This document shows, one piece after another, positions 2,823 through 63,328 of a stretch of 64,000 bases of DNA. How positions within the stretch are numbered: position 1 is the stretch's first letter; each line of letters starts with the position of its first letter. Source of the DNA: Spirochaetales bacterium (GTDB lineage Bacteria; Spirochaetota; Spirochaetia; SZUA-6; JAFGRV01); contig JAFGWI010000056.1 in assembly GCA_016937215.1 (NCBI GenBank), forward strand, positions 15,118 through 79,117. The letters run 5' to 3'. The notes beneath the pieces were generated by a model. It made no database searches and was not told the DNA's origin. It saw only the letters and a list, made by a program, of their open reading frames with translations. The position numbers and the translations under genes are program-made.

Positions 2823-3041
2823 GTCCTGACATTAGAGGCTGTCGTGCTAGTGAAAGCTTTTCTGTATCAATGACTATATATGGGGTTATAGTGGTTAAGT
2901 TGTGCCATATTTATCGCGACAGCCTCGTGTTTCGAGGTTGTGAAACAATCTTATTTGCAATTAGTAGGCGAAATGTAAATTAATAAATTATTATCCGGTT
3001 ATAAGATAACGTATTCGCAATTTTTATGATTCATGCAAAAC
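2823..3041 (+). repeat. conserved non-coding block, family 2, copy with a 127-nt stem-closed insertion
   Basis: GTCCTGAC (2823-2830) plus CAATTAGTAGGCGAAATGTAAATTAATAAATTATTATCCGGTTATAAGATAACGTATTCGCAATTTTTATGATTCATGCAAAAC (2958-3041) match the reverse complement of 34758-34853. The intervening insert is closed by GAGGCTGTCG (2835-2844) / CGACAGCCTC (2917-2926). Confidence 0.6.
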
Positions 3042-3170: not shown

Positions 3171-5366
3171 TCAGGGTTTCCAGATACCGTTGTAATATTC
3201 CCAGGTAAACTGCCATCCGTCATTTCTGTAACTGTTAGGCTCTTTAAAAACCGGGCCGCCCCAGTTGCCGATGATCCAAGTGTAGGAGCCAATGCCTTTT
3301 TCTTCAAGGTAACGGATGATGGCCTCGCCATAGCCCTCCCGGTCGGCATTGTCCTGGTTGAAGCTGTATTCGGTGACGATTACCGGAGCGTAGCCCTCGT
3401 TAACAATGTAGCCGAATCCATTGTCCCAGGCTGATGCGTTCCATAGTTTGTTGTAAACATGGGGGTAGGGGTGAACCGAATATATAACATTAGGACGATT
3501 AACCTGGAGAGACCGGACATTAAAATCCTGAGCCCAGGTGACTCCGGCAACCGCGAATATGTCTACCACTGGTTCATAACTCATGATGATATCGATCAGT
3601 TCCTCTGCCTTTGGGACCCAGTTCTCCCAGGATATTTCATAGGGTTCATTGTATACTTCCCAGATGATATGGGTCTGGTCTTTTAGGCGGGGCATCAGAA
3701 TATGCCAACCATCTTTGGCGTTTTCAAAATGAAAATCCACATTGCCCGTATCACCGCCTTCGTGCCAGCCGTCGAGAAGAACATAGATGCCCAATTCATA
3801 GGTCCAGTCAAGGTAATTGTCAAAGGCCTTGAGGTAGGCTTCCCGGTCGGTATCCTTGTTCTCATTATAATACCATCTTGATGTGATATAGGGCAGTCTG
3901 ACAGCATCTATCTTCCACTCTTTTTTTAGATATTTAAAATCATCTATTGTATAGTTAAGGGAATCAACCACAGCCACCGACTTGGGAACAAAGGGGATGC
4001 CATTGGAATCAAGGATTTGTGTGCCTTGAACCCTCAAAGGCGGCGCGAATGGCGGAAGATTCTGGCCGACCCAGACCACACGGGTGAGGCTGGAAATTAA
4101 ACCATCGTTATCAGTCACGGTCAGGGTTACAGGATATTTACCTGCCTGGCTGTAGCTGTGAGAGACCTTGGTTCCAGAGGCAGTGAGGCTGTCGCCGAAA
4201 TCCCAGGTGTAACTGCTAATGCTGCCGTCGGTGTCGCTGGATGTGAACCCGGGAAATAAAGAATCCACAGCATCAAAAACAACCGTGCTGTTGATCTCTG
4301 GTTTGTCGGGGGTGTAATCAAAAGCAGCGACAGGGGGTTTGGCGGTATTGGGCCAGTCTATAGAATCAAAATAAAGTGTAAAATTACCGGCGCTGCTTGT
4401 CTTTAGCTGAAAACCGATTTGCTGATTCCAGCTAGGATCGCTTGTTTCGGGAAGAATCAAATCAAGTTCAAGCCAGATTCCCTTTTGAACCCATTGGTAA
4501 CCCTGCCAATTAGCGTTCCACTGGTAATCGGACCAGTCGGCGGTATGGGGCATAACATAGGCCTGGACATTATCAATAGGCGCGTTTTCGGGTAACCAGA
4601 GCCTAAAAATTGTTTTGGACCCGGGCGAAACAAAATTAGTCCCGTCGATTTTGGCTTCTACCATCTCGGCCTCAGTTGCCTGGATTTCCCATTTAATGGC
4701 ATGGCTACCAGAAAAGGATTTTTCCGTAGTGTTCGTAATGGTGGAGTGGGTGTTATTGGTTGTAAACCCCTGAAGGCTTCCATCTTCAAAATTAAAGACG
4801 CTATTGTCACTTGAACTTTGACCTGATGAAATTGAAACCGAAACAGTTTTGGCTTTAGAAACCATTTTGCCGGAATTATCTGTGACACTTAAAACAGCAA
4901 TGTAATTCCCTGTTTTACTGTATTGATGTTTCACATTGGCACCGCTTGCGCTTTGGCTGTCTCCAAAGTCCCATGAATATTCAACAATAGTGCCGCCCTT
5001 GCTGTAGGATGCCAGACCGTAAAAGTAGACATCATCAGAAGTGGAAATAGCTTGGGGCCAGAATGTGTAATTGGCTAGAGGTGAAGAGTTTTCAGGTGTG
5101 CAAGGGAATCCGTTAATGATACCAACATAGACTTTGGCGATAAAAAGTGCATCCACAATATCAACCCTTAAGCTGCAATCCACATCAGCCAAGGCTTTGT
5201 CGAAATTGTCGGGATTGAGCCCCACATAGTATTGAGCCACCAAAAGGGCATCAACAACATTGACCTTGCCGCTATGGTCCACATCACCTAGGCTTTGCGC
5301 GCTCAGTGAAACCGAAAGTAAGGAAAGCGCCAGAAAAATAAAAGCGCTAAACAATTTTTTTTTCAT
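3171..5366 (-). CDS. secreted multidomain glycoside hydrolase: signal peptide, N-terminal dockerin, two PKD-like domains, unassigned beta-rich middle region, C-terminal GH5 catalytic domain
   Basis: 731 aa. Dockerin repeats GDVDHSGKVNVVDALLVAQYYVG and ADVDCSLRVDIVDALFIAKVYVG. WDFGDS PKD motifs occur twice. GH5 signatures IIWEVYNEP (acid/base), SVHPYP and VIVTEYS (nucleophile). SD AAGGAG lies upstream of the ATG. Confidence 0.8.
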   Translation of the reverse strand: MKKKLFSAFIFLALSLLSVSLSAQSLGDVDHSGKVNVVDALLVAQYYVGLNPDNFDKALADVDCSLRVDIVDALFIAKVYVGIINGFPCTPENSSPLANYTFWPQAISTSDDVYFYGLASYSKGGTIVEYSWDFGDSQSASGANVKHQYSKTGNYIAVLSVTDNSGKMVSKAKTVSVSISSGQSSSDNSVFNFEDGSLQGFTTNNTHSTITNTTEKSFSGSHAIKWEIQATEAEMVEAKIDGTNFVSPGSKTIFRLWLPENAPIDNVQAYVMPHTADWSDYQWNANWQGYQWVQKGIWLELDLILPETSDPSWNQQIGFQLKTSSAGNFTLYFDSIDWPNTAKPPVAAFDYTPDKPEINSTVVFDAVDSLFPGFTSSDTDGSISSYTWDFGDSLTASGTKVSHSYSQAGKYPVTLTVTDNDGLISSLTRVVWVGQNLPPFAPPLRVQGTQILDSNGIPFVPKSVAVVDSLNYTIDDFKYLKKEWKIDAVRLPYITSRWYYNENKDTDREAYLKAFDNYLDWTYELGIYVLLDGWHEGGDTGNVDFHFENAKDGWHILMPRLKDQTHIIWEVYNEPYEISWENWVPKAEELIDIIMSYEPVVDIFAVAGVTWAQDFNVRSLQVNRPNVIYSVHPYPHVYNKLWNASAWDNGFGYIVNEGYAPVIVTEYSFNQDNADREGYGEAIIRYLEEKGIGSYTWIIGNWGGPVFKEPNSYRNDGWQFTWEYYNGIWKP

Positions 5367-5438: not shown

Positions 5439-5593
5439 GGCGTTAAGGATTGTAATAACAGCAAACCATTTTTTCAAAAATGGTTTGCTGAAACCCGCAG
5501 GCACGGTAATTCCGTGCTGAGGATTTCGAAGCGAAGCGGAGTTATGGAAAGCCTGGCCTGCTGTAATGAAATGAAAGCAGGAAACGCCCAAAT
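5439..5593 (-). repeat. GC-rich structured intergenic element, family 1, copy H
   Basis: Reverse complement reads TTTATTTGGGCGTTTCCTGC...GCAGGCCAGGCT...CTCCGCTTCGCTTCGAA, then hairpin GCACGG-AATTA-CCGTGC, hairpin CAGCAAACCATTTTTGAAAAAATGGTTTGCTG, then ATCCTTAACGCC. It lies 68 nt downstream of the co-oriented GH27 gene. Confidence 0.7.
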
Positions 5594-5660: not shown

Positions 5661-7076
5661 TCAGCAAAGCTCTGGAATGAGTCCCACATAATATTGGGCA
5701 ATGACTAAAGCATCCACGATGTTAATACCACCCGAACAGTCAACATCCCCATAGGCGGCCATAAAGCCTTGAGGGTTCAAACCCACATAATACTGGGCGA
5801 TCAACAGGGCGTCGACGATGTTTACACTGTTGTCTTTATTCACATCGCCCTGTTTGCCGACAGGAGGTGTAGGGGTGGGTTCAGGCGGGTTTGTCACCGT
5901 GCCGCCGGCTGAGATTCGTAATACCTTTACTCCATGAGCTGGTACGCTAGACGAGAAGGAGCTGTTGTAGCTTCCCAGTTCTGAATGAGCCCAGAGATCC
6001 CTTACTGATGCGGAACCGGAAAGCCCAATGTCGACCCACCTTGCCGTGATTGTCGCGCTCGATCCGCTTCTGTTAAACAAAACCACTGCTTTTTCACTGC
6101 CCTTTTCAGAACCAAGGGGCTTTACCCAGACCTCCAGGTCACCCTTATCATCAACAATACGCCCCTGAATACCAGCAGGGTCCTGATCAATAGCGATCAT
6201 CTCGGTGTTCAACAGGATCGACAGGGTCTCATCACTCATGTTTCTTACATCATTTCCCGCGATAAGGGGAGCAGCCATGATGCACCAGAGACTGAAGTGG
6301 GATTTGTATTCTTCATAGCTGCAAGCCCCATTGCCCACTTCCAGCATATCAGGGTCATTCCAGTGCCCTGGACCGGCGTGAGGCCAAAGTGCTTCGTTTT
6401 TGTCAATAATCCCAAGAACTGAATGAAAATTATCTTCGATATCACCGGTGGTGCGCCAGAGATTCCCCTGGTCCTGCATCCAGTCGCCGGCGTAATACCA
6501 GGCGCAGATGCTAAACACAATTGGTCGCCCTGTTTGTAAAAGAGCTTGGCTCATAAGGGTGTAGCTTGTCTGAAGGTCCACCTTGGCATTACAGCTGTCA
6601 TACTTCAGATAGTCAACACCCCAGGAGGCGAAGGTGTTGGCATCTAGTGTTTCATGCCCCTGGCTGCCGCTTTCCGGAACATTACAGCAAGTTGCTGTTC
6701 CCCGATCGCCATATAATCCGAGTTTGAGCCCAAGGCTGTGACAATAATCGGCCAGGGCCTTGATTCCGCTTGGGAATCGGTCCTGGTCCCCTCTAAGGTT
6801 ACCATTCTCATCACGCCCCTGGTCATCCATCCACATATCATCAATGTTCAGATAGATGTAACCAGCGTCCCTCATGCCTGAGCTCACCATGGCATCGGCG
6901 ATTTCCATTATTTTTGTCTCGTTAATATCGCCCCCGAAAATATTCCAGCTGTTCCAGCCCATTGGTGGGGTAAGGGCAAGACCATTCTCCAGGGAGACAA
7001 GAATCGAGGGAGAAATTAACAGGAGAAGAATCAGCCATCCCCCATGGTTTATGAAGTCTTGTTTTTTCTTATTCAT
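5661..7076 (-). CDS. GH27 alpha-galactosidase with C-terminal dockerin
   Basis: 471 aa. Signal/TM segment, then PPMGWNSWN, YLNIDDMW and YLKYDSC (GH27 hallmarks). C-terminal GDVNKDNSVNIVDALLIAQYYVG and GDVDCSGGINIVDALVIAQYYVG. Confidence 0.9.
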   Translation of the reverse strand: MNKKKQDFINHGGWLILLLLISPSILVSLENGLALTPPMGWNSWNIFGGDINETKIMEIADAMVSSGMRDAGYIYLNIDDMWMDDQGRDENGNLRGDQDRFPSGIKALADYCHSLGLKLGLYGDRGTATCCNVPESGSQGHETLDANTFASWGVDYLKYDSCNAKVDLQTSYTLMSQALLQTGRPIVFSICAWYYAGDWMQDQGNLWRTTGDIEDNFHSVLGIIDKNEALWPHAGPGHWNDPDMLEVGNGACSYEEYKSHFSLWCIMAAPLIAGNDVRNMSDETLSILLNTEMIAIDQDPAGIQGRIVDDKGDLEVWVKPLGSEKGSEKAVVLFNRSGSSATITARWVDIGLSGSASVRDLWAHSELGSYNSSFSSSVPAHGVKVLRISAGGTVTNPPEPTPTPPVGKQGDVNKDNSVNIVDALLIAQYYVGLNPQGFMAAYGDVDCSGGINIVDALVIAQYYVGLIPELC

Positions 7077-7333
7077 AAGTCCTTCCTTTTGTTTGATTGT
7101 AAAAATTCAGCCGTCCCTTTACTGTCATTCTGGCTCAATGCCAGGATTTTTCTTTCCACTTTCCTTGAAAATGACAGAACGCGACTGTGTCTGATAATTG
7201 AAGCATGACTGAATTGTTACCAGCACTTTATGTTGAAACCATTTCAGGGTGACATATATCCATATAAAATGCTTTGCAGGAGATAACAAAAGATGGGCAT
7301 TTGATAGTCTTATGAGTATATTAAGGTGGGAAG

Positions 7334-8461
7334 CTATTTATTCCTGTAATCAGTGGGGGGCAGACCTTCCTGTTTTTTAAAATAGCGGTTAAAGGTGGAA
7401 ATGTCCTTGAAGCCTATGCTCAAGGCAATTTCAATAACCCGCCGGTCGGTGGCTTTTAAAAGGCGTTTAGCTTCGTTTATTCTGATTTGATTAATTAATT
7501 CTCTGCAAGTGCAGTTATATTGTGTTTTGACCAAATCCCTGATATGGGCCTGGGAAATGACGGTTTCTTTCGATATGATGCCTATTGACAGCTGGGGTTC
7601 AAAATAATGTTCTTCGAGGTACTTCATAAAACGTGTAAGTTCCTGGGTTTTGAAATTTTCTAGTTCAAGGGGTTTTTGCCTGATCTCTTCAATGGAAGCT
7701 GTTTCTGGAGCTGTGGACAAGGCAAGCAGGCTTTTTTTTCTGATAAACAGTCGCTGAACAATGAACAACAAGCAGAGCCCGGTGATCACATTAAAAATGA
7801 TGAGAATTCCGGGATAATTCTTGTAAAAGGCGATTTTTTTTAGAACAAAGATTTGTTCAGTCCCTGGAAGGGGGCCGGCTTCCCGATGAATAAACTGAAA
7901 ATCCAGAGCAGCTGATTTTGTGAATGTTTTTTTGGCATTCGATGTTTTGGGAATGCCAATGGAATCAAACCACCAATCAGGAGCAATAAAATCTTTTATA
8001 TTAATTTTATACATGCTCCTTCCTGGGTTCAGTATCAGCGAATATTCGTTATGCCTTAAAAAATAGGCTGCTTCTTTTTCCGGCTTTGAAACACCCTCTT
8101 CAAAGGTTTTTAAAAACAAAACAACATTTTTAGCGCTGGTATTTTCAATTTCCAGGCTAAGATAATCAAAATTAGAAAGATTCATAAAGCTTTTTTCTTT
8201 TTTTAACCAGCAAACGATACCACTGTAGGGGTTGCCGCCACCCTTTCCCCGTGGCTGTAACTGATAAGTAAGTGAAAGGGTTTTGCTGTCGGGATATGAG
8301 ATTTCAGCTTTACTGTTTTGGCTTGCGGTTGCTTCAATGCGGCTTGTGTATTCTGAATTGGGAAACAGGACAATAGGTTTATCAAAAAAAAATAAAAAAG
8401 TTGGTATGAGCAACAAAATGGGCACTATGATGATAAAAGCTGATAAGCATTTTTTACTCAT
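7334..8461 (-). CDS. membrane-anchored AraC-family regulator: TM - ~200-aa extracytoplasmic domain - TM - AraC HTH
   Basis: The ORF-track start at 8476 is TTG. ATG 8461 (MSKKCLSAFIIIVPILLLIP) has GAGGA 9 nt upstream. Second TM is GILIIFNVITGLCLLFIV. C-terminal HTH ISQAHIRDLVKTQYNCTCRELINQIRINEAKRLL...GFKDISTFNRYFKKQEGLPPTDYR. Paralog of 25993-27126. Confidence 0.8.
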   Translation of the reverse strand: MSKKCLSAFIIIVPILLLIPTFLFFFDKPIVLFPNSEYTSRIEATASQNSKAEISYPDSKTLSLTYQLQPRGKGGGNPYSGIVCWLKKEKSFMNLSNFDYLSLEIENTSAKNVVLFLKTFEEGVSKPEKEAAYFLRHNEYSLILNPGRSMYKINIKDFIAPDWWFDSIGIPKTSNAKKTFTKSAALDFQFIHREAGPLPGTEQIFVLKKIAFYKNYPGILIIFNVITGLCLLFIVQRLFIRKKSLLALSTAPETASIEEIRQKPLELENFKTQELTRFMKYLEEHYFEPQLSIGIISKETVISQAHIRDLVKTQYNCTCRELINQIRINEAKRLLKATDRRVIEIALSIGFKDISTFNRYFKKQEGLPPTDYRNK

Positions 8462-8651
8462 GAGATAATTCCTCAATTTTTTTTCAGGGACAAGCTTTCG
8501 CTGTTTCTGTTGTTGTATTTATTCAAGGCAGTTCTAAAACCTCTAATACGCATCACTTTCATAGATTATAAATGGGCTATGCTTAGTAATCAAGCAAAAA
8601 AATAAGTATTTGGAAAGGCCCTTTGGTAAATAAGATATCTCCTTGCCCCCC

Positions 8652-8806
8652 CGCGTTAGGGATCGAAGTGGAAACTCCAGAGCAGCCTCTGGAACCCGGC
8701 CTATGACAACAGGAAGAGGAAATAAGGACGTCTAACAAAGACCGCGAGGAGTTGAAACGGAGAGCCCGACCGCCTGAAGCGGAGCGGAAGGCGGGAACGC
8801 CCAAAA
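8652..8806 (-). repeat. structured intergenic element, family 1, divergent copy E
   Basis: Reverse complement starts TTTTGGGCGTTCCCGCC...GGCGGTCGGGCTCTCCGTTTCAACTCCTCGCGG and ends TTCGATCCCTAACGCG. Its closest relative is copy F (37251-37390). It lies downstream of the co-oriented radical SAM gene. Confidence 0.6.
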
Positions 8807-11095: not shown

Positions 11096-11147
11096 CCCAC
11101 ATTCCGCAGTGAATTTAGGTAATTTATTAAAGAATTTAGAGTTGAGG
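11096..11147 (+). mobile_element. half-copy (left end) of the MITE seen at 17735-17861
   Basis: CCCACATTCCGCAGTGAATTTAGGTAATTT...AGAGTTGAGG aligns with the first ~50 nt of the 17735 element. Confidence 0.55.
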
Positions 11148-15785: not shown

Positions 15786-16103
15786 AATATTTTCAATTTT
15801 GATCCATCATAAATAATGTCTTTGATTTTTGCAATGCTTCTTTTCTATACTTATTATATTCGAATCAACTTAAAAATAAAGAAAAAAAACAAGAGCTCTT
15901 CAATAATTTCATGCAGGACTTTTGATTGATGAGTATTCAGATGAATATCCCTACAATTTTAATCAGAACAACTTATTGAATACTGAAATGATCTATGTTA
16001 ATTAATAGATAGAGTGGTGCATCGATTTACTAAAATGCATTCGCCCATAATTTGAAGTCAATAATTATCTGTTTTCATGAAAATATTGACTCATGGAGGA
16101 AAA

Positions 16104-17648
16104 ATGAAGTATCAAAATAAAATTTCGTTATTATTTACTCTTATTTTAATTGGATTGATAAGCACTGGAAATTTGTTTTCACAGATGCGGAATATCACAG
16201 GTTATGAACTGGTTGATGACATGAAAATTGGCTGGAACCTGGGAAATTCCTTTGATTCCTTGGGCGGAGATGAAACCGCCTGGGGAAATCCGGTGACAAC
16301 CAAAGCCATCATCGACATGATCGCCTCAAAGGGTTTTAAAACAGTGCGTATACCTGTTTCCTGGGGTGAGCATGTGGGGCCAGGGCCAAGCTATACCATC
16401 GACCCTCAAAGGCTATCCCGCGTAAAAACCGTGGTTGATTATTGCATGGCCAACAGCATGTACGCCATTGTGAATATGCATCATGAAAATGAGTGGCTGG
16501 TTCCAACCTATGCCAAGGAAGCTGAGTCAACCAAGGAATTGCTTGCCATCTGGAAGCAAATTGCCGAATATTTCAGGAATTATGATGATTATCTTTTGTT
16601 TGAGACCATGAACGAACCCCGTGTGGAAGGATCTGCCATGGAGTGGAACGGCGGAACCGAGGAAAACAGGGATGTGATAAATCATTTTAACCAGGTGGCA
16701 CTGGATACCATTCGTTCCACTGGTGGTAATAATTCAAAGCGCTGGGTTTTGATTACACCCCATGCGGCAACCTCCATGGACATCGTGATCAGAAATCTGG
16801 CCATTCCCAATGATCCCTATATCCTGGTTTCCCAGCACACCTATTATCCCTATTTCTTCTGCCTGGATACTGGCGGAACAGCAGCCTGGGGCACAGAAAA
16901 GGATAAAATCGATATGGATCTGGAACTTGACCGCGTTGCTGATTTCTGGAAAGCCAAAGGAATACCCGTGGTTGTGGGTGAATGGGCTTCCATAGAAAAA
17001 AATAACACAGCAGCTCGTGTTGCCCATGCCGAATATTATGCCGGGGGCCTTCGAAACCGGGGTATGCTGGGTATCTGGTGGGATAATGGCTGGACCGGCG
17101 ATGGGGGATTGGCCATTCTGGACCGCAAAACCCTCACATGGCATCGTCCTGAAATTGCCGATGCTTTGATCAAGGGCGTTAACCAGCCCCAGTCTTCGCC
17201 ATTTCCAGGTTATGATTGCTCGGCTTTACCGGAGTGGAGCGCGTCTACGGTTTATTCGGCAGCCGGTGCTCAGGTACGTTATAATGGAAAAATGTATGAG
17301 AACAGATGGTATACTTCTGGTGAAAATCCTGAGGAAAATTCCGGTTCCAACGAAGTCTGGATCTATATCGGACCTTGCGCCGGCGGTCTGACTCCTGATA
17401 CGCCAAGTCCAACCCCGGTTCCTGACATAACACCCACACCTGTTGATAGGATTATGGGTGATGTTGACCGAAGCGGAGCAGTCAATGTGGTGGACAGTCT
17501 GTTAATTGCCCAATATTATGTAAATCAAATTCCAGCTGTGTTTTATCCTGAGGCAGCTGATGTGAATTGTGACAATAGCATTAATATTGTGGACGCCCTT
17601 TTGGTGGCCCAGTATTATGTGAGTTTGATAAGCAAATTCCCCTGTTAA
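16104..17648 (+). CDS. GH5 endoglucanase + CBM5/12-like domain + C-terminal dockerin
   Basis: GGAGG lies 4 nt before ATG 16104 (the track start 16077 is less likely). GWNLGNSFDS, FETMNEP and VVGEWAS are GH5 motifs. WSASTVYSAAGAQVRYNGKMYENRWYT is a CBM5/12-type motif. GDVDRSGAVNVVDSLLIAQYYV and ADVNCDNSINIVDALLVAQYYV form the dockerin. Confidence 0.9.
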   Translation: MKYQNKISLLFTLILIGLISTGNLFSQMRNITGYELVDDMKIGWNLGNSFDSLGGDETAWGNPVTTKAIIDMIASKGFKTVRIPVSWGEHVGPGPSYTIDPQRLSRVKTVVDYCMANSMYAIVNMHHENEWLVPTYAKEAESTKELLAIWKQIAEYFRNYDDYLLFETMNEPRVEGSAMEWNGGTEENRDVINHFNQVALDTIRSTGGNNSKRWVLITPHAATSMDIVIRNLAIPNDPYILVSQHTYYPYFFCLDTGGTAAWGTEKDKIDMDLELDRVADFWKAKGIPVVVGEWASIEKNNTAARVAHAEYYAGGLRNRGMLGIWWDNGWTGDGGLAILDRKTLTWHRPEIADALIKGVNQPQSSPFPGYDCSALPEWSASTVYSAAGAQVRYNGKMYENRWYTSGENPEENSGSNEVWIYIGPCAGGLTPDTPSPTPVPDITPTPVDRIMGDVDRSGAVNVVDSLLIAQYYVNQIPAVFYPEAADVNCDNSINIVDALLVAQYYVSLISKFPC

Positions 17649-17734: not shown

Positions 17735-17861
17735 ACCCACATTCCACAGTGAATTTGGTAATTTCTTATATTATTTGGAGTTAAGAATTTGCGATTTGCA
17801 AAATCGCCTTTTCTATTTATCAATAATATAAGAAATTACTATTTTAATGCGGAAAGTGGGT
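17735..17861 (+). mobile_element. MITE-like element (~127 nt) with ~40-nt imperfect terminal inverted repeats
   Basis: Left end ACCCACATTCCACAGTGAATTTGGTAATTTCTTATATTAT. Right end ATAATATAAGAAATTACTATTTTAATGCGGAAAGTGGGT. About 90% identical to the reverse complement of 48710-48839. Confidence 0.75.
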
Positions 17862-20856: not shown

Positions 20857-20947
20857 GCAATTTCCGGTAACTTTTAATTTTTTATGCGAAATTCAAAAAA
20901 TATAATTATCTTTATTATAATTAGATAAGGTTGTTACCGGAAATTGC
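20857..20947. repeat. 15-bp perfect inverted repeat enclosing a 61-nt AT-rich loop
   Basis: GCAATTTCCGGTAAC (20857-20871) is the exact reverse complement of 20933-20947. It abuts the 3' end of family-1 copy G. Confidence 0.85.
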
Positions 20948-20952
20948 TGGGG

Positions 20953-21135
20953 TGAAGCCGGTTTTTTTTAAAAACCGGCTGAAAACCTTTTTTGGTCGAT
21001 GATTTCGCCCAAAAAGGGGTCGAAGCGATAGCAGAGCCATGGACAGCCCGACTCTGCAGGGCTACTCGTGATGAGGTTTGACCCTATTGCTTTTCGGCCC
21101 TGCAGGGGCATGGCCAGAACTCTAAAAATCCTTTT
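20953..21135 (-). repeat. structured intergenic element, family 1, degenerate copy G
   Basis: Reverse complement gives stem CCCTGCAGGG...CCCTGCAGAG, then GTCGGGCTGTCCATGGCTCTGCTATCGCTTCGACC, hairpin CCTTTTTGGGCG-AAATCAT-CGACCAAAAAAGG, and hairpin AGCCGGTTTTTAAAAAAAACCGGCT. Both terminal blocks are degenerate. Confidence 0.45.
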
Positions 21136-25408: not shown

Positions 25409-25433
25409 CCTGCCTGTTTTGGCAGGTTTTTTT
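25409..25433 (+). terminator. rho-independent terminator of the lipoprotein gene
   Basis: CCTGCC-TGTTTT-GGCAGG followed by T7. The T-run is shared with the 5' end of family-1 copy D. Confidence 0.65.
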
Positions 25434-30137: not shown

Positions 30138-31112
30138 ATGAAAATTCTCTATATAGGCGGAACAGGAAATATCAGTCGCCATTCTTCACTTCTGGCCATC
30201 AGTCAGGGGCACCAGCTGACACACATTAACCGGGGTATGGGTGAGCCAGTCGCGGGTACTGAAAGCCTGAAGGCAGATGTTAACGATGTGGCTGCCATGA
30301 AAAAGATCATTCAAGGCCGAAACTGGGATGTGGTTGTCAACTGGATTCTTTTTACACCCGGACAAGCCAAGGCCAACATCGAGTTGTTTACAGGGAAATG
30401 CGGCCAGTTTATTTTTATCAGCTCAGCCTCGGTTTATGAAAAACCACCTCGATTACCAATTATCACGGAATCAACCCCTTTGTTAAATCCCTTTTGGGAT
30501 TATTCCAGGGACAAAATTGCCTGTGAAGAACTCTTTAACCGGGCTTATGTGGAAAAGGGGTTTCCGGTTACCATCCTAAGGCCCTCGCTGACCTATGATA
30601 GGGTTATACCTGCGGCCATCGCTTGCTGGAAAGATTATACCCTTATTGACCGTATCAAGCAAAACAAAGAGATTGTTGTCCACGGTGATGGCAACTCCCT
30701 TTGGACCATCACCCATGCGCGGGATTTTGCCAAGGGTTTTAACGGCCTGTTGGGACATCCCTTGGCAATAGGACAAAGCTTTCACATTACTTCCCATGAA
30801 ATCCTCACCTGGAACCAGATTTACGATGCCATGGCCGCGGCTGTTGGTAAAAGAGCCCGAAAGGTTTACATTCCTTCTGTTAAAATAGCCGAAGCTGAAG
30901 CATCGACCCGGGGGACTTTGTTGGGTGACAAATCCTATTCCGCGATTTTCGACAATAGCAAAATCAGGCAGCTGGTGCCGGATTTTTACGCGACCACGCC
31001 CTTTTGGAAGGGTATCGAAGAAACCATTTCCTGGTATGAAGCAGATCCCAAACGCCAGGTGATTCTTCCTGAAAACAATGCCCTGCTGGATCGCCTCATC
31101 AAATTGGCTTAG
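30138..31112 (+). CDS. NAD-dependent epimerase/dehydratase family (atypical SDR)
   Basis: AAGGAGG lies 7 nt before ATG 30138 (the track start 30117 is TTG). MKILYIGGTGNIS is a Rossmann motif. Confidence 0.75.
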   Translation: MKILYIGGTGNISRHSSLLAISQGHQLTHINRGMGEPVAGTESLKADVNDVAAMKKIIQGRNWDVVVNWILFTPGQAKANIELFTGKCGQFIFISSASVYEKPPRLPIITESTPLLNPFWDYSRDKIACEELFNRAYVEKGFPVTILRPSLTYDRVIPAAIACWKDYTLIDRIKQNKEIVVHGDGNSLWTITHARDFAKGFNGLLGHPLAIGQSFHITSHEILTWNQIYDAMAAAVGKRARKVYIPSVKIAEAEASTRGTLLGDKSYSAIFDNSKIRQLVPDFYATTPFWKGIEETISWYEADPKRQVILPENNALLDRLIKLA

Positions 31113-34757: not shown

Positions 34758-34853
34758 GTTTTGCGAGAATTATAAAAATTGCGAATAATTTATCTTATTA
34801 CCGGATAATAAGATATTAATTTACAATTGCCGGCTAATTGTTAAAGTCAGGAC
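34758..34853 (-). repeat. conserved non-coding block, family 2, compact copy
   Basis: The reverse complement (GTCCTGACTTTAACAATTAGCCGGCAATTGTAAATTAATATCTTATTATCCGGTAATAAGATAAATTATTCGCAATTTTTATAATTCTCGCAAAAC) aligns with 2823-2830 plus 2958-3041. It contains the perfect hairpin ATCTTATTA-TCCGG-TAATAAGAT. Confidence 0.6.
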
Positions 34854-36659: not shown

Positions 36660-36814
36660 TTTTGGGCGTTGCCTGCCGCCCGGGGGCCTGGCAGGCCGGG
36701 CTTTACGCAGCTCCGCTTTGCTACGAAAGCCGGAAGCGCGAAATTATCGCGCTTCCGGCTTTCAAAGTGCGGGTTTTGAAAAACCCGCACTTTGCAGCTT
36801 CAATCCCTAACGCG
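36660..36814 (+). repeat. structured intergenic element, family 1, copy A (reference copy)
   Basis: TTTTGGGCGTT. P2 GCCTGCC(36671-77)/GGCAGGC(36690-96). CGGGCTTTACGCAGCTCCGCTTTGCTACGAA. P3 36728-36760 (loop AAATTAT). P4 36767-36790 (GTGCGGGTTTTGAAAAACCCGCAC). ATCCCTAACGCG. It starts 17 nt after the fabV stop. Confidence 0.8.
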
Positions 36815-37210: not shown

Positions 37211-37250
37211 TGCTCCTTGTAATCAACAAAAAGCCGGCTGCCTCTTTACC

Positions 37251-37390
37251 GCGCGAGGGATTGAAGCGGAAACCCCGCAGCAGCCCGCCAGAGCCGGCCT
37301 TTGACTGGAAGGAAAAGGCTAAGGTTCTGGCTAAAAGGGGCTGCGAGGAGTTGCAGCGGAAAGCCCGACCCTCCGGGGCGCGCCCAAAAA
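37251..37390 (-). repeat. structured intergenic element, family 1, copy F (E/F subfamily)
   Basis: Reverse complement reads TTTTTGGGCGCGCCCCGGAGGGTCGGGCTTTCCGCTGCAACTCCTCGCAGCC...GGGGTTTCCGCTTCAATCCCTCGCGC. Confidence 0.6.
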
Positions 37391-40427: not shown

Positions 40428-40807
40428 TCCAGGATTATAACCCTAAAAACAGGCTAGGACAATGGCTTTATGAGCAAAGTAATTTGTTCTATTGAAACCT
40501 GTATCCTTCACACCTCTTTGCTTTGTTCAGGGTAACAGCCATGATGCCGCTGAACCCTTGCCCATTCCTGAAAAATCCCTGTTTTTCGGGAATTTCATTA
40601 AAAAACCAATAAAAACTGAAATATTTCTTGCTTTTTTAGAAAAAAAACTTTTATTTTAAGGGCAAAATGATTTATAATTCAGTAAAACCTTTGAAAATTT
40701 TAAATTAATTGTAACAAAAGGTTAACAGGATTTAAGAAAGAAACCATCCTTTCTTTATCGCAAAATGATCTAATGATTTATGATCAACATGACAAAAAGG
40801 GAGTATC

Positions 40808-41253: not shown

Positions 41254-41409
41254 TTTTTGGGCGTTGCCTGCTCCCGCTGTGCTCCGCAGGCCGGGCTTTG
41301 CGGGGCTCCGGCTATTGCCTCCGAAGCTTTTTGCGTGAAATTATCACGCAAAAAGGCTTTTCAGGCTTTTTTTGAAAAAAAAGCCTTCACCCCTTTAATC
41401 CCTAACGCG
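41254..41409 (+). repeat. structured intergenic element, family 1, copy B
   Basis: TTTTTGGGCGTTGCCTGC...GCAGGCCGGGCTTTGCGGGGCTCCGGCTATTGCCTCCGAA, hairpin GCTTTTTGCGTG-AAATTAT-CACGCAAAAAGGC, hairpin AGGCTTTTTTTGAAAAAAAAGCCT, then AATCCCTAACGCG. It starts 30 nt after the receiver gene stop. Confidence 0.8.
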
Positions 41410-42812: not shown

Positions 42813-43044
42813 GGCTTTTCCTTTGTTTGTAATGTAATTATCCTGTTTGTTCCACGACTGGAATAAATCCTGACCATTAACAGGTTTTACAAATTTTATT
42901 AAGTTCGGTGAAAAAAGCAAGGGGTATTTGTTTATTCTGTCATGAATTTACTTATGATTATCAGTTTTTGTTTGCTTGAATTAGGCGGGACAGGAAGGAT
43001 GAATAAACTCAGGGCAATCGCATTATAATTTTTATAGTTGTTTT

Positions 43045-43227
43045 GTCACTCAGAGCTACCAACCACCGTCACTCTGTGCTATCACCCCCCGTCATTCAGA
43101 GCTACCACCCCCGTCATTCTGAGCTATCACCCCCTGTCATTCAGAGCTACCACCCTCCGTCATTCTGAGCTACCACCCTCCGTCATTCAGAGCTACCACT
43201 CCCCGTCATTCAGAGCTACCACCCCCC
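43045..43227 (+). repeat. tandem direct repeat, 8 units of 22-23 nt (consensus GTCATTCWGAGCTACCACCCYCC)
   Basis: Unit starts at 43045, 43068, 43091, 43113, 43136, 43159, 43182 and 43205. There are no spacers. The ORF-track entry 43038..43265 is just this array translated. Confidence 0.95.
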
Positions 43228-43381
43228 GTCATTCTGAGCAAAGCGAAGAATCTCATTTGGCATAGACCAATTGTATTCACTAACAAAAGCCCCAAACCAG
43301 GCGAGATTCTTTTAGGACGCATAGCCGAGCAATAAACGCGGAGTGTTTATGACCAGGCCCGTCCTTCCTTCTCAGAATGAC
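43228..43381 (+). repeat. palindromic intergenic element of the GTCATTCTGAG...CTCAGAATGAC type (copy 2)
   Basis: GTCATTCTGAGCAAAGCGAAGAATCTC...GAGATTCTTTTAGGACG...CGTCCTTCCTTCTCAGAATGAC. Its 5' arm is the sequence that is tandemly amplified immediately upstream. Confidence 0.7.
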
Positions 43382-43511: not shown

Positions 43512-44981
43512 ATGAAAAAAAAGTTTTTGCTTTTCTGTTTGTTGTCTTTGTTTTTGGCTATGGGTGCAAGCGCACTGACCAAGGGTGATGTGAACGATGA
43601 CGGGGTGATCAATATTGTTGATGCCATGATTGTTGCTCAGGTTTATGCCACGACTCAACGATTGGTTGATCCTGCTGTCGGGGATGTGTCGGGTGACGGT
43701 GTCTCAAACATCGTGGATGCGCTACTGATAGCTCAATATTATGTGGGAGTGATTGATGTTTTTCCCATCGACAAGCTGACACTTGAGGTGGAGGTTTTGT
43801 CCTCAGCCCTTGAACGGGACATCGCGCCGCAGGTTTCAGCTGATGAGTATTCGGCTGTAGTTAATGGAATAAATCAGTTTGCCTACGATTTTTATGGCCG
43901 CATCAAGGGCGGTGATGACAACATCTTTTTCTCGCCAGTGAGTTTGTCATTTGCCTTTGCCATGGCTTCTGCCGGCGCAAAAGGTGAGACAAGGTCTGAA
44001 ATCCTTGAAACCATGCATTTACCTGGTGATATCAATTATCATGGAGCTTTTAACAAGCTTGAGAATCAAATCTCAACAGCAGCAGCCAATCCCAATGACT
44101 ATATGGGAGATGATCTGATTGTGCGTATTGCCAATTCCACCTGGGGGCAGAAAAATTACCATTTCATGGCTGATTTTCTTGATACCCTGGCTGTTAATTA
44201 CGGCGCAGCCATGAATCTTCTGGATTTTATGACAGCTCCGGAGCCTGCCCGCTTAACCATTAACAAATGGGTGTCTGATCAGACAGAGGAGATGATCAAG
44301 GATTTGATCCCTAATGGCGCGATAACACCTGATACCCGTCTGGTTTTGACCAATGCCATTTATTTTTTCGGTAACTGGAAGAATCAGTTTGATGTCAAAA
44401 ACACCAAGAATGAGAATTTCTATAATCTCGACGAATCCGTTTCTTCGGTTCCCATGATGAAAATGAATGAGAAGACTCAATATTATGACGGCCCGAATTA
44501 TGAGATGCTGATCAAGACCTATCAGGGAACCAAGAGAAATGCCATGTATATTTTTATGGCTGATAAGGGTGAACTGGAAATGCTTGAAGCTGCAATAAAT
44601 GAAGATTTTGTGGCCAGCGCTAAAATGAATGCCAGGAGTTATATAGTAGATCTATCTATGCCCAAGTTTGATTACAGCTGGAAAAAATCTGTTGTAAAGG
44701 ATTTAAAAGCATTGGGAATGATGTCTGCATTCTCACCCAGCGCGGCTGATTTTTCAGGTATAAATGGCATGAGAAATCTTTTTATCAGTGATGTTTTTCA
44801 TGAAGCCGCGATTTCTGTTGATGAAAAAGGAACCGAGGCCTCGGCGGCTACAGCCATAATCTGGGCTGAAACCTCAATACCCGATTACGCAACCATGAAT
44901 ATAAACCGGCCCTTTATTTATCTGATACGAAATGAAGATACCGGAGCTATCCTTTTTATGGGTAAGGTGATTAAGCTGTAA
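43512..44981 (+). CDS. secreted serpin (serine protease inhibitor) with N-terminal dockerin
   Basis: 489 aa. Signal peptide. GDVNDDGVINIVDAMIVAQVYA and GDVSGDGVSNIVDALLIAQYYVG. Serpin body NIFFSPVSLSFAFAMASAGAKGETRSEI with reactive-centre-loop hinge GTEASAATAII. Confidence 0.9.
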   Translation: MKKKFLLFCLLSLFLAMGASALTKGDVNDDGVINIVDAMIVAQVYATTQRLVDPAVGDVSGDGVSNIVDALLIAQYYVGVIDVFPIDKLTLEVEVLSSALERDIAPQVSADEYSAVVNGINQFAYDFYGRIKGGDDNIFFSPVSLSFAFAMASAGAKGETRSEILETMHLPGDINYHGAFNKLENQISTAAANPNDYMGDDLIVRIANSTWGQKNYHFMADFLDTLAVNYGAAMNLLDFMTAPEPARLTINKWVSDQTEEMIKDLIPNGAITPDTRLVLTNAIYFFGNWKNQFDVKNTKNENFYNLDESVSSVPMMKMNEKTQYYDGPNYEMLIKTYQGTKRNAMYIFMADKGELEMLEAAINEDFVASAKMNARSYIVDLSMPKFDYSWKKSVVKDLKALGMMSAFSPSAADFSGINGMRNLFISDVFHEAAISVDEKGTEASAATAIIWAETSIPDYATMNINRPFIYLIRNEDTGAILFMGKVIKL

Positions 44982-48709: not shown

Positions 48710-48839
48710 ACCCACTTTCCGCACTAAAATAGTCATTTCTTATATTATAGCGAAATAGAAAAGGCGATTTTGCAAATCGCAAATTCTTAACTCTTAATAA
48801 TATAAGAAATTACCTAAATTCACCGAAGAATGTGAAGTG
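48710..48839 (-). mobile_element. second full copy of the MITE (inverted relative to 17735-17861)
   Basis: The reverse complement aligns end to end with 17735-17861, including the internal GCGATTTTGCAAATCGC hairpin. The right terminal repeat is more degenerate. Confidence 0.75.
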
Positions 48840-58100: not shown

Positions 58101-58417
58101 TTTTTTGGCGTTGCCTGCCGCCCATAAACAGCAATTCTATATTTGAGTACAAATATTACGAATTGTGCTTAATTTCAATTCGTTGCAGTTACAATTCCAA
58201 ATATAAACTATTATTAACGCAGTTTCATAGCATCGGTTAATTTTTATTTTTAACAAAAGGTTTATATTTGGAATTGTTGTACCGGGGGCATGGCAGGCCG
58301 GGCTATTCGGTACTTCGCTGTTGCTCCGAAGGTTTTTTGCCTGAAATTATCAGGCAAAAAACGCTTTGGCTTGCCATTTTTGAAAAAATGGCAAGCCATA
58401 CCTTCTATCCCTAACGC
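58101..58417 (+). repeat. structured intergenic element, family 1, copy C, carrying a 159-nt AT-rich insertion in the P2 loop
   Basis: TTTTTTGGCGTTGCCTGCCGCCC | insertion 58124-58282 | CGGGGGCATGGCAGGCCGGGCTATTCGGTACTTCGCTGTTGCTCCGAA, hairpin GTTTTTTGCCTG-AAATTAT-CAGGCAAAAAAC, hairpin CTTGCCATTTTTGAAAAAATGGCAAG, then TATCCCTAACGC. The insertion contains an 18-bp perfect inverted repeat (58191-58208 / 58260-58277). Confidence 0.75.
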
Positions 58418-61540: not shown

Positions 61541-63082
61541 TTATTCCGCATACTCAACAAGGGGAACGGCCTTTTTAAAGGCCAGGGCATAATTGGGCTG
61601 TACTTTGCCGGTTACTAAACCCTGAAAGGAATCGGAATCCCTTAATAAACCCCAGCGGTCTGTTCCCTGGTGTGGAAGTGTCATGGCTTTTTCGCTTTTT
61701 GTCATGGCATAGGCAACAAAGACACCTTCGGTTGGTAAATCCTCGGAGCAGGTGATGATAACACGATTGCCGGAAATCTCAACCGATTGAATGGTTTCCT
61801 TACCTCGCGGTGAGGTTATTTCAAAACCTTTTCCATTCATCCATTGAGTTTCATTTTGGTGAGGAATTTGAAAGTTTTCATCCCATACCAAAGGGGGAGA
61901 AGGAACATGAAAATCGATGGAAATAATATGATTGTTGCGAAGGATATTTAATGGCTGAAGTGGTTGCCAATCATTCTTTAGAATAACCCGCTGGTAATAG
62001 ATTTCAGCATACTTTTCTCCCAATTCTTGATAGCCCTCTGCTTTAAAATGAATTTCATCAATATCATAAGGATATTGGTACTTTGGGCCGGAACACACAA
62101 TGCTGGCAGGATTGTCCATGGCTATTTGCCATGCCGCAAGAGTTGATAGGGAGTTGTCACCCCAGGAATTCTGTTGTGAGACAATCATCAAAACATCTTC
62201 GTTTTGTCCTGTAATGGCTTTTATATCTGAATTATAATCCTGCCATAACTGAAGAAGCTCTGACCCATAGTTTGGGTTATCTGTATCGCTTTCTCCATGG
62301 GTCATAATAATAGCGCCGATACCGTAGCTCTTTCCCTGTTCACGGGCAAGACGGGTGATTGCTTCCACTTCTATCATCGAAGCGGCATAGGCGCGACCAT
62401 TGACGCCGTTTATAGTAGCCTCTTTTTTAAGGTAAACCAAGGCTTTACCATCTTCACCGACATTTGTGTGAACGCTGACGTAGTCGCGATCATGGTTGTT
62501 CTTTAAAAGTGCAGATATTTGATTGGCCATGGATGAATGGGGTGTTTCGCCTAAAATGTTTGCCGGCCAGGCGCTCGGGTATTGGGGCGCGTAGCGGTTG
62601 ATGGGCTCAGTTAATGGAACCAATTCCAAAAGAGGATCGGTAGAAGAAATCGGCCATTCCAAATCGGCTTTGGATAATTTCAAATTGGCAAATGGCTGGG
62701 TAATCGATTCAACAGGTTTGGCTTTCACTCCCACAGCGAGGCTTTGTCCTGTTCCTATAATACCAGCCCAATCCCATGGAATATTCAGCTGCGCTGATTC
62801 ACCGGGGAAATGATCTATGATTTTAATATAATATTGAGCGATGAAAAGCGCATCAACAACATTTATAATGTCATTGGCATCAACATCGGCCGCGATCCTA
62901 TTAAAGGGATGTGGTTCCATTTCCACATAGTATTGCGCTGTAAAAAGGGCATCAACAATATTGATAATATTATCTTCATTCACATCGCCGAGAGTAGAGC
63001 TTTGGCCAAAAACCGAAATTGTGATTATTGATAATACAACTAAAAAGAACAAATATTTTTTATGTTTTTCGAAAAATACCAT
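61541..63082 (-). CDS. secreted carbohydrate esterase-like protein (sialate O-acetylesterase/DUF303-type SGNH fold) with N-terminal dockerin
   Basis: AAAGGA lies 6 nt before ATG 63082. Signal peptide. GDVNEDNIINIVDALFTAQYYV and ADVDANDIINVVDALFIAQYYI. IIGTGQSLAVG (GQS nucleophile motif) and IIMTHGESD. Confidence 0.6.
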   Translation of the reverse strand: MVFFEKHKKYLFFLVVLSIITISVFGQSSTLGDVNEDNIINIVDALFTAQYYVEMEPHPFNRIAADVDANDIINVVDALFIAQYYIKIIDHFPGESAQLNIPWDWAGIIGTGQSLAVGVKAKPVESITQPFANLKLSKADLEWPISSTDPLLELVPLTEPINRYAPQYPSAWPANILGETPHSSMANQISALLKNNHDRDYVSVHTNVGEDGKALVYLKKEATINGVNGRAYAASMIEVEAITRLAREQGKSYGIGAIIMTHGESDTDNPNYGSELLQLWQDYNSDIKAITGQNEDVLMIVSQQNSWGDNSLSTLAAWQIAMDNPASIVCSGPKYQYPYDIDEIHFKAEGYQELGEKYAEIYYQRVILKNDWQPLQPLNILRNNHIISIDFHVPSPPLVWDENFQIPHQNETQWMNGKGFEITSPRGKETIQSVEISGNRVIITCSEDLPTEGVFVAYAMTKSEKAMTLPHQGTDRWGLLRDSDSFQGLVTGKVQPNYALAFKKAVPLVEYAE

Positions 63083-63328
63083 GTGTTTTCCTTTCGTTGT
63101 CAATTATTTTATTTTAAATGACTACATAATAATATTGATAGGGATTGTTGTCAATGTCCGTGAATTAGCTCAGAAAGCCATAGTTCAAATGCTTTATATC
63201 TATTAAAGACATAATTTCATAGCGTTATAGTGAGTAATTAGTGTTTATGATTGGCAGCTTTAAAAACCCTTGAGAGGGGAATGGCTTTCCACTTGCAGTT
63301 TATTAAGTGAATAAGTTATAATAAAGGA

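Follow-up and report, generated by a model that had tools for sequence, protein, structure and literature searches.

Eight GC-rich elements in a spirochaete genome segment: very probable members of the Flavo-1 superfamily with a larger, predicted three-way-junction architecture

A stretch of 64,000 nucleotides from the genome of a Spirochaetales bacterium (assembly GCA_016937215.1, contig JAFGWI010000056.1, positions 15,118 to 79,117; this whole 64-kb stretch is referred to as the window) contains eight copies of a structured intergenic element of about 155 nt, in which conserved blocks and loops are combined with hairpin stems that differ between copies yet remain paired. A preliminary description of the window assigned the element to no named family, and the locus raises the question of what such an element is: a structured RNA, a device kept by the host at gene ends, or a mobile DNA. 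Our analysis indicates that the eight elements very probably belong to the Flavo-1 superfamily (RF01705), whose repeats are about 150 nt long and occur in Bacteroidota, Spirochaetota and Fibrobacterota. Six of them (copies A, B, C, D, G and H, the main type, labelled type IV below) are a new interior variant, and the other two (E and F, type II) are sub-threshold members of the known motif.

The kinship is most direct for copies E and F. No Rfam model matches the window at the curated gathering thresholds (42 bits for Flavo-1, 51 bits for Termite-leu); in a permissive covariance-model scan, E and F match RF01705 with 30.9 and 35.7 bits, along the whole Flavo-1 model (positions 1-76), on the strand opposite to that read in the preliminary description, and with an insertion of 70-72 nt in the apical loop relative to the model (72 nt in E). 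Copies A-D, G and H have no Flavo-1 match at E≤1 over the window, and A has none at E≤10 in a scan of 851 nt. The terminal blocks of the published Flavo-1 flanks, in turn, occur in seven of the eight copies, ATCCCTAACGC being the complement of the Flavo-1 end GCGUUAGGGAU and GGNCGGGCT the complement of AGCCCGNCC, so that the element can no longer be said to lack a named family. The Flavo-1 basal helix GGG·A·UU/AA·G·CCC with the internal loops GAUUGNAGCGG … AGCGGAAAGCCCG was found as well, and the main type retains it through the first 3x3 internal loop, the second loop being absent. The likeness to Flavo-1 comprises the terminal blocks GCGUUAGGGAU… and …AGCCCGNC, the basal stem with its A·G mismatch and 3x3 internal loop, the strand, the taxa (Bacteroidota and some Spirochaetes) and the habit of occurring in many intergenic copies. 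The differences are that every window copy falls below the curated threshold, that the main-type interior, composed of a helix P1b, a junction strand and two hairpins, is invisible to the model, and that the actual unit is larger than the model, which it extends by a closing helix (P0), a variable hairpin (P2) and a CCAAA tail.

These three additions all lie outside the Rfam model, and they can be traced in published data. Weinberg et al. 2010 (Genome Biol 11:R31) rated Flavo-1 a likely RNA, with a range of Bacteroidetes and a few Spirochaetes, and the motif is now among the most numerous small RNA (sRNA) entries of Rfam (PMC9029176). In the accessible part of their alignment, which includes flanks, a small hairpin and AACGCCCAA come after the motif at least 27 times, for example in Gramella forsetii (NC_008571) and on a Bacteroides thetaiotaomicron plasmid (NC_004703); what was published as the motif is thus the core of a unit of about 150 nt. 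In the same portion GCGUUA stands directly 5' of the motif and a hairpin plus AACGCCCAAA directly 3' of it, blocks that seven of the eight window copies share, and P0 covaries there too (GCGUG/CACGC, GCGCU/AGCGC). The extended architecture is absent from the Rfam model and from the sections of the 2010 paper that were accessible, and may be described elsewhere. A text search of the literature found GCGTTAGGGAT and ATCCCTAACGC in no paper, the matches containing only TTTGGGCGTT or AACGCCCAAA and, among those listed, none concerning the element, and keyword searches on Bacteroidetes families of repetitive extragenic palindromes (REP) or MITEs (miniature transposable elements with inverted repeats) gave no description of it.

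Species-representative genomes were scanned with a frame pattern, TTGGGCGTT-N(115-145)-TCCCTAACGC, which led to at least 117 loci (designated by L and a number). Because the pattern fixes both end blocks, their conservation across loci is partly a selection effect, and copies from one genome are not independent. The frame-matched elements include accepted Flavo-1 members (L018 with 65.2, L035 with 52 and L029 with 46.8 bits), and the Flavo-1 model gives 75-76 bits for additional copies in L041 and L081.

On the folding strand, the layout of the element is 5' GCGUU-A-GGGAU…, a long imperfect stem, …AGCCCG-(P2)-AACGC-CCAAA 3', and the whole is modelled as a three-way junction for which the 5-bp P0 is the closing helix. 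The basal stem P1a (Flavo-1 GGGCT…/…ATCCC) consists of GGG/CCC, a conserved mismatch (C in copy A), TT/AA and the 3x3 internal loop. In the main type, the interior above this first loop is replaced by P1b, a conserved junction strand of 14-16 nt, and two hairpins, P3 and P4. P1b is a covarying helix of 4-5 bp immediately above the loop (GCAGC/GCAGC in A, GGGG/CCCC in B, GGTA/TACC in C, AGGG/CCCT in D, ATAA/TTAT in H), and it encloses a junction made by the conserved strand TCCGCTTYGCTNCG together with P3 and P4. The junction block TCCGCTTTGCTACG is conserved in A, D and H, altered in B, C and G, and also present in L122, L015, L104 and L084. The preliminary description had identified P2, P3, P4 and the pairing of GCGTT with AACGC correctly, while overlooking the basal stem P1a and P1b.

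Pairing was counted on an alignment of nine sequences, the six main-type window copies with L049, L066 and L122. In it, 87.3% of the cells are paired as against 65.1% in shuffles, and both sides have changed in 28 of 37 pairs, a figure reached by none of 500 shuffles; sliding the 3' partners by a single column lowers the pairing to about 54%. RNAalifold recovered P1a, P1b, P4 and part of P3 unaided, and the earlier claim that stems differ between copies and stay paired is thereby upheld. P1a and P1b are 93% and 91% paired, respectively, with both sides changed in 7 of their 10 pairs, including AGG/CCT for GGG/CCC in copy H and CC/GG for TT/AA in copy D. In P3 both sides have changed in 12 of 15 pairs, and in P4, which is 93% paired, in 9 of 12, its three apical U-A pairs being invariant. 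P0 shows a double compensated change in copy F (GCGCG/CGCGC), and P2, unrelated in sequence, recurs in nearly all of the about 150 elements collected.

The census of the window, six main-type and two divergent elements, agrees in number and coordinates with the preliminary description, which had also set E and F apart as a subfamily; these have the standard Flavo-1 interior instead of that of the main type. Our own covariance model of the main type (R1), built from nine training sequences including the six main-type window copies, was run over the whole window with filters off. It scored these six, part of its own training set, at 72-128 bits and copies E and F at 20-22 bits, and a ninth element was not found. 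The block ATCCCTAACGC (at most one mismatch) has 7 sites in the window where 0.75 are expected, a count seen in none of 100 shuffles, one of these sites lying outside all eight copies (31045-31055, ATCCCAAACGC), and TTGGGCGTT has 5 sites where 0.55 are expected, again a count that no shuffle equals. The G+C content of the copies is 45-64%, as against 40.8% for the window, so that they are GC-rich as had been described; a uniform figure of about 60% does not apply, copy C having only 38% because of an AT-rich insertion. Pairwise identity between window copies is 56-72% with a median of 57%, and the best pair elsewhere within one metagenome-assembled genome (MAG) is 93% identical. Copy G has the highest number of unpaired cells.

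Copies of the element in the window and, for copy A, their parts. Strands refer to the inferred folding (Flavo-1) strand, the complement of the orientation used in the preliminary description; R1, covariance model of the main type.
Feature	Position	Strand	Remarks
Copy A, main type	36660..36814	-	R1 127.9 bits; begins 17 nt past the fabV stop codon
Copy B, main type	41254..41409	-	R1 100.9 bits; response-regulator gene on one side, convergent MutY-like gene on the other
Copy C, main type	58101..58417	-	R1 115.8 bits; divergent msrA / GntR-family intergenic region
Copy D, main type with long P2	25427..25631	-	R1 118.9 bits; adjoins terminator-like hairpin 25409-25426
Copy H, main type	5439..5593	+	R1 110.6 bits; downstream of GH27-dockerin gene
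Copy G, degenerate main type	20939..21135	+	R1 72.3 bits over 20939-21050; without either terminal block
Copy E, Flavo-1-like type II	8652..8806	+	Rfam Flavo-1 30.9 bits at 8640-8775
Copy F, Flavo-1-like type II	37251..37390	+	Rfam Flavo-1 35.7 bits at 37243-37374
P0 arm GCGTT (copy A)	36666..36670	-	closes the whole element with AACGC at 36809-36813
P2 variable hairpin (copy A)	36671..36696	-	GCCTGCC…GGCAGGC
P1a and P1b, 5' arms on the strand of the preliminary description (copy A)	36698..36711	-	partners at 36794-36807
Conserved junction block TCCGCTTTGCTACG (copy A)	36712..36725	-	within 'GCTCCGCTTTGCT.CGAA' of the preliminary description
P3 hairpin, 15-bp stem (copy A)	36726..36762	-	loop AAATTAT at 36741-36747
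P4 near-perfect palindrome (copy A)	36764..36793	-	apex TTTTGAAAA
P1b and P1a, 3' arms on the strand of the preliminary description, and terminal block TCAATCCCTAACGC (copy A)	36794..36813	-	

Two of the copies have peculiarities of their own. The insertion in copy C is nested inside the P2 loop (58124-58283, 160 nt, 25.6% G+C) and has its own 18-nt inverted repeat (ACAATTCCAAATATAAAC / GTTTATATTTGGAATTGT); neither a second instance of it, in the window or in the loci compared, nor a clear target duplication was seen. Copy D begins right where a terminator-like hairpin (CCTGCC…GGCAGG, 25409-25426) ends, the T-run of this hairpin being the TTTTTTT that opens the copy.

G·U pairs, G·A pairs and GNRA loops, as read from the sequences, favour the Flavo-1 strand as the one that folds, which is the complement of the strand read in the preliminary description. 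In 115 of 135 elements this strand is predicted to give the more stable fold of the two, the difference averaging 6 kcal/mol (p = 6e-17). Single mismatches in P2 are G·U on the Flavo-1 strand (and A·C on the other) in 23 cases against 2 in the reverse sense, and GNRA tetraloops occur in P2 13 times on the Flavo-1 strand and never on the other, where a count of UNCG tetraloops also found none. For the main type, G·U counts come to 19 versus 7. The long stems of the window copies are themselves almost perfectly Watson-Crick, with 36 of 37 pairs in copy A.

Towards the neighbouring genes, however, the orientation is random. The 90 informative loci, in counts that rest on crude calling of open reading frames (ORFs), comprise 27 co-directional, 26 antisense, 22 divergent and 15 convergent settings, so the proposal that the elements are transcribed as 3' untranslated regions is unsupported, although the gene neighbours on which it was built are named correctly. 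In co-directional settings the median distance from the upstream stop codon to the element is 20 nt. Within the window four copies lie on each strand; the GC skew is mostly positive and its cumulative curve rises from end to end, so that the window falls in one replichore. The flanks of 134 elements contain no conserved promoter, terminator or target duplication, and show T-richness on one side, a purine on the other and nothing else. CAGGC and GCTAA do flank copies A and B, as had been noted, but at inconsistent distances, and as target duplications they find no counterpart over the 134 elements.

The frame loci are mostly from Flavobacteriales, among the matches listed, with others in Bacteroidales, Sphingobacteriales, Chitinophaga, Treponema/Treponemataceae, Leptospiraceae and Fibrobacter; the frame also occurs on 11 IMG/VR viral contigs, and a typical element gave no match, at that query length, in a BLAST search of curated collections of phages and plasmids. 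By their interiors the elements were sorted into type I (…ATCTTTTG, a hairpin, CAAAAGGAT…; 66 elements), type II (AAGTCCTCG…, as in E and F; 8), type III (GAGYTCAAAC; 23) and type IV, the main type of the window (15), with 37 elements of other interiors. Type IV is present in Treponemataceae MAGs, namely in L049 (P3 loop TAAAATAT, P4 apex TTTTTGAAAAAA) and, with three copies within 8 kb, in L016, as well as in Pedobacter, Chitinophaga and a few others, while a metagenome scan for the main-type junction block had a single match, L122. The named best homologues of the BipA protein of the window (70-76% identity) are almost all from Spirochaetota. The organism has no near relative among sequenced genomes, and the closest homologue of its FabV (66% identical) is encoded on a 7.3-kb contig, L119, which has at least three element fragments and both begins (1-29) and finishes (7161-7352) inside Flavo-1-type elements, as expected if these repeats break short-read assemblies. 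Elements are absent from three spirochaete contigs (60 kb in total) whose BipA is about 75% identical to that of the window. With eight copies in 64 kb and those of L119 as against three empty contigs, the family is patchy and dense where present.

Several structured repeat families lie side by side in the Treponema-type contigs. In L049 a TD-2 RNA (RF03162; 156-257, 51.6 bits with a threshold of 48.7) adjoins a Flavo-1-type element at 255-389, and sub-threshold TD-1/TD-2 matches occur at 4856-4970 and 5669-5788 of the same contig and at 590-682 of L010. In Bacteroidota, other common hairpin modules (among them GTCATTGCGAGG…GCAATC, GTCATTCTGAGCGGAGTCGAA and ACCTNNNAGGTTTTGAAAACCTNNNAGGT, the last resembling the P4 apex of the window) are nested inside the variable part of elements or adjoin them (L031, L037, L087, L091 and L094 in the interior; L078; L090, L042 and L058).

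Comparison of orthologous sites shows both persistence and exchange. In Flavobacterium species with flanks that are 68-78% identical, elements are retained at the same site, with internal blocks intact and P2 compensated (CCCTTT…AAAGGG versus CCGTTT…AAACGG). In two Flavobacteriales MAGs (L082 and L101), which share an orthologous site with flanks about 90% identical, the difference in P2 is confined to one contiguous tract of about 40 nt (CCT…AGG to GAA…TTC, together with the loop), and in the interior module type III has given way to type I. This pattern looks like an exchange of whole hairpins and modules between copies, and the window is a mosaic of the same kind of parts, P2 being common to A and C, and P3 to B and C. 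Since the exchange of a whole hairpin provides compensation for free, compensated stems can arise without selection on each pair. The preliminary description had taken unrelated but paired stems as an indication of selection on structure; the covariation it relied on is real, but as proof of such selection it is weakened by the contiguous replacement at this orthologous site. At its GCGTTAGGGAT end L101 has, in addition, a unit about 165 nt long, which is missing from the orthologous site in L082 and ends in the palindrome GCGTTAGGGATTGTATCCCTAACAC. In these two related MAGs a conserved second unit of this size often follows the element (L004, L018, L058, L082, L088, L101, L111 and L112), and its terminal perfect palindrome is built from the end block of the element (GCGTTAGGGAT-nnn-ATCCCTAACGC). 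Over greater distances synteny is lost, both between the window and the locus of its 66% FabV homologue and between L017 and L096.

Of several possible explanations we lean, tentatively and with somewhat less than even confidence, towards a non-autonomous, REP-like repeat that would be copied in trans, with the Flavo-1 strand as a single-stranded intermediate. The intermediate would be either DNA or RNA, in which an enzyme supplied in trans would recognise the invariant core of the junction on one strand, and only copies whose intermediate folds would be propagated, so that only mismatches tolerated on that strand (G·U/T, G·A) and stable loops of the GNRA type would be transmitted. The strand bias would then be independent of the local direction of genes and replication, because only foldable intermediates are proposed to propagate. 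The variable hairpins would be passenger or stabilising modules that diversify by exchange of whole hairpins or modules, and resident copies, mostly just past gene ends, would be tolerated or retained there over long periods. Repeat-like behaviour is seen in the density, the patchiness, the random orientation, flanks free of a conserved promoter or terminator, the nested insertion in copy C and the occurrence on viral contigs, and exchange at the DNA level in the hairpin and module replacements at the L082/L101 site. A broader version, for which we see a possibility of perhaps one in three at best, would make the full unit of P0, P2, the Flavo-1 stem and the invariant CCAAA tail a cross-phylum, non-autonomous element of about 150 nt copied as a single strand, and so a new kind of mobile repeat, recognised by its three-way junction instead of by inverted-repeat ends or a GTAG hairpin; on the same doubtful footing, the main type of the spirochaete would be a lineage-specific remodelling of the interior.

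A number of observations weigh against copying by a single-strand mechanism. Among the 40 annotated ORFs of the window there is none for a transposase, HUH endonuclease, recombinase or reverse transcriptase, no protein family recurs as a neighbour across 117 loci, and no longer, gene-carrying version with the same ends was found. Among the compared sites there is no clean pair of a filled and an empty one, and no near-identical copies were seen, the best pairs reaching 72% in the window and, in one MAG, 93%. Grouping by genome weakens the strand signal (8 versus 2 genomes, p = 0.11; GNRA loops in 6 genomes), and whereas IS200/IS605-type elements have an orientation bias linked to replication, the copies in the window show none. 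Finally, blocks that are identical across phyla and elements that persist at their sites look like the outcome of purifying selection on resident copies, for which a host function or an RNA gene would be a better fit than a purely selfish element.

Such a gene is the first alternative to be considered, namely a true family of structured non-coding RNA, transcribed on the Flavo-1 strand, whose invariant loops and junction would bind a conserved partner, protein or RNA, while the variable stems serve as a scaffold. We regard it as possible but less probable than the copied repeat. It is in line with the filing of Flavo-1 as an sRNA by Rfam and the rating as likely RNA in the accessible text of Weinberg et al., with the covarying helices of the main-type alignment and, in the portion available, of the published flanks, with GNRA loops and G·U and G·A pairs that all fall on one strand, and with blocks that are invariant over three phyla in elements retained at orthologous sites; transcripts overlapping Flavo-1 matches have also been reported in Leptospira. 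Less easily reconciled with an RNA gene are the lack of a conserved promoter or terminator in the flanks of 134 elements, a density of eight in 64 kb with none in three related contigs, and long stems that in the window copies are nearly all Watson-Crick. Random orientation moreover implies that read-through from neighbouring genes would yield the wrong strand half the time. Published expression data are equivocal: Flavo-1 matches in F. psychrophilum lie on either strand relative to transcribed regions, and many of them show no transcription (PMC9723704), which speaks against the RNA gene.

Stabilisers of mRNA 3' ends, terminators and transcriptional insulators are roles that have been proposed for REP elements and for bacterial interspersed mosaic elements (BIMEs). 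An element of this kind, kept by the host at gene ends and active wherever it is transcribed, resembles the 3' untranslated region proposal of the preliminary description. It is an unlikely explanation here, for all that it agrees with the median distance of 20 nt past the upstream stop codon in co-directional settings, the position of five of the eight window copies after a co-oriented gene, the terminator-like hairpin adjoining copy D and a P2 that in Flavobacterium often resembles a two-way terminator (AAAAAAGAGGCTA…TAGCCTCTTTTTT). Against it, 22 of the 90 informative elements, copy C among them, lie in divergent (promoter) regions, no U-run comes after the hairpins of the window copies, and invariant blocks and strand bias are left unexplained. 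An ordinary MITE, moved as double-stranded DNA by cut-and-paste through a DDE transposase acting on terminal inverted repeats, can be dismissed as highly improbable, as the preliminary description had already argued, since beyond being small, intergenic and present in many copies the element has ends complementary over only 5 bases (GCGTT/AACGC), no target-site duplication and no near-identical copies, whereas the two copies of a genuine young MITE-like repeat that also lies in this window are 93% identical.

What the window adds is that the published motif is the core of a larger unit, predicted to be a three-way junction with a covarying closing helix, that the interior of this unit can be swapped wholesale, and that strand-specific signs of folding go together with patchiness, exchange of whole hairpins and the absence of an orientation rule. 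Taken together, the strand signs, the patchiness and the hairpin exchange make the choice between RNA gene and mobile DNA directly testable. If the element is mobile, a transposition system that has gone unrecognised in Bacteroidota and Spirochaetota is there to be discovered; if it is an RNA, it would be a component of a very abundant ribonucleoprotein. As the main type is missed by the Rfam model, the family is under-counted in genome annotation, at least in spirochaetes.

The window contains other repeats. The MITE-like one is AT-rich, about 110 nt long and forms a single long hairpin; its two copies (17754-17861 and 48710-48817) are in opposite orientation, with a partial third at 11098-11146, and it behaves like a young MITE, in contrast to the diverged Flavo-1-type copies. 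An AT-rich repeat of 71 nt (2971-3041 and 34758-34828, 87% identical, opposite orientation) lies near gene starts and may be a shared regulatory region. At 43044-43381, about nine tandem 23-nt units (CGTCATTC[A/T]GAGCTACCACCCCC) run straight into a palindromic element (43228-43381, GTCATTCTGAGCAAAGCGAAGAATC … CTTCTCAGAATGAC), with GTCATTCTGAGC starting both the tandem unit and the palindrome arm. Further arms of this GTCATTCTGAG-type palindrome family lie at 2023-2167 and 40460-40544, the stretches 2089-2173 and 40460-40544 being 74% identical. The preliminary description had noted a core shared between these arms and the elements: the 12-mer CTCCGCTNNGCT is indeed present at 2140-2151 and 43237-43248, but with 7 matches in the window (at most one mismatch), one of them coding, it makes a weak link. 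Type I dockerin domains occur in two glycoside hydrolase family 5 (GH5) enzymes, a GH27 alpha-galactosidase, a serpin and a SASA-type esterase (genes at 3171-5366, 5661-7076, 16077-17648, 43512-44981 and 61541-63103), and dockerins in a genome whose BipA is closest to Spirochaetota are an unusual setting.

Beyond Flavo-1, the element may be compared with several known systems. Termite-leu (RF01730) likewise has two adjacent hairpins, and P3 and P4 of copy A match it with 30.4 bits and have similar linkers, ACGAAAG…CUUUCA…UCAAUC; this is below the 51-bit threshold and on the strand opposite to Flavo-1, and the flanks of published Termite-leu members differ. Since the match is confined to copy A and recurs neither in another window copy nor in any of six Treponema-type loci, we regard it as a resemblance of hairpins. 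Integron attC sites share recognition of one strand by its fold, short conserved boxes, a centre of variable length and conserved unpaired bases. Their box order is reversed, however (RYYYAAC…GTTRRRY as against GCGTT…AACGC here), and copies of the element are scattered in both orientations among housekeeping genes rather than collected in cassette arrays. On box order, continuity of the strand and missing defining motifs, readings as attC, tRNA-like structure or group II intron remnant appear untenable, a judgement drawn from inspection of the sequences and general knowledge of those families.

Derivatives of IS200/IS605 come closer, as they also lack inverted-repeat ends and target duplications and have imperfect, strand-specific hairpins, to which a possible fixed short flank (TTT) might be added. 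They differ in that the sequence of P2 is not conserved, that no orientation bias exists within one replichore and that no TnpA or TnpB gene was seen in the window or among the neighbours at the loci. For REP and BIME elements, the RAYT (REP-associated tyrosine) transposases offer a point of comparison: a Bacteroidetes subclass, 2.6, with 'atypical' structures is known (Quentin et al. 2018; PMC6006769), but the published REP sequences of this subclass are without the blocks of the element, and a RAYT or Y1 transposase was found neither among the window ORFs nor as a recurring neighbour, though one may exist elsewhere in the genome. Like REP and BIME elements, the present one is an abundant, GC-rich hairpin repeat situated just past gene ends, in both orientations and long-lived at its sites, and those elements are also thought to be handled as single strands. 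It is set apart from them by the absence of a GT[AG]G foot, by a length of about 150 nt with a predicted three-way junction where a REP is a hairpin of 20-40 nt, and by blocks that are identical across phyla, whereas REP sequences are specific to a genome.

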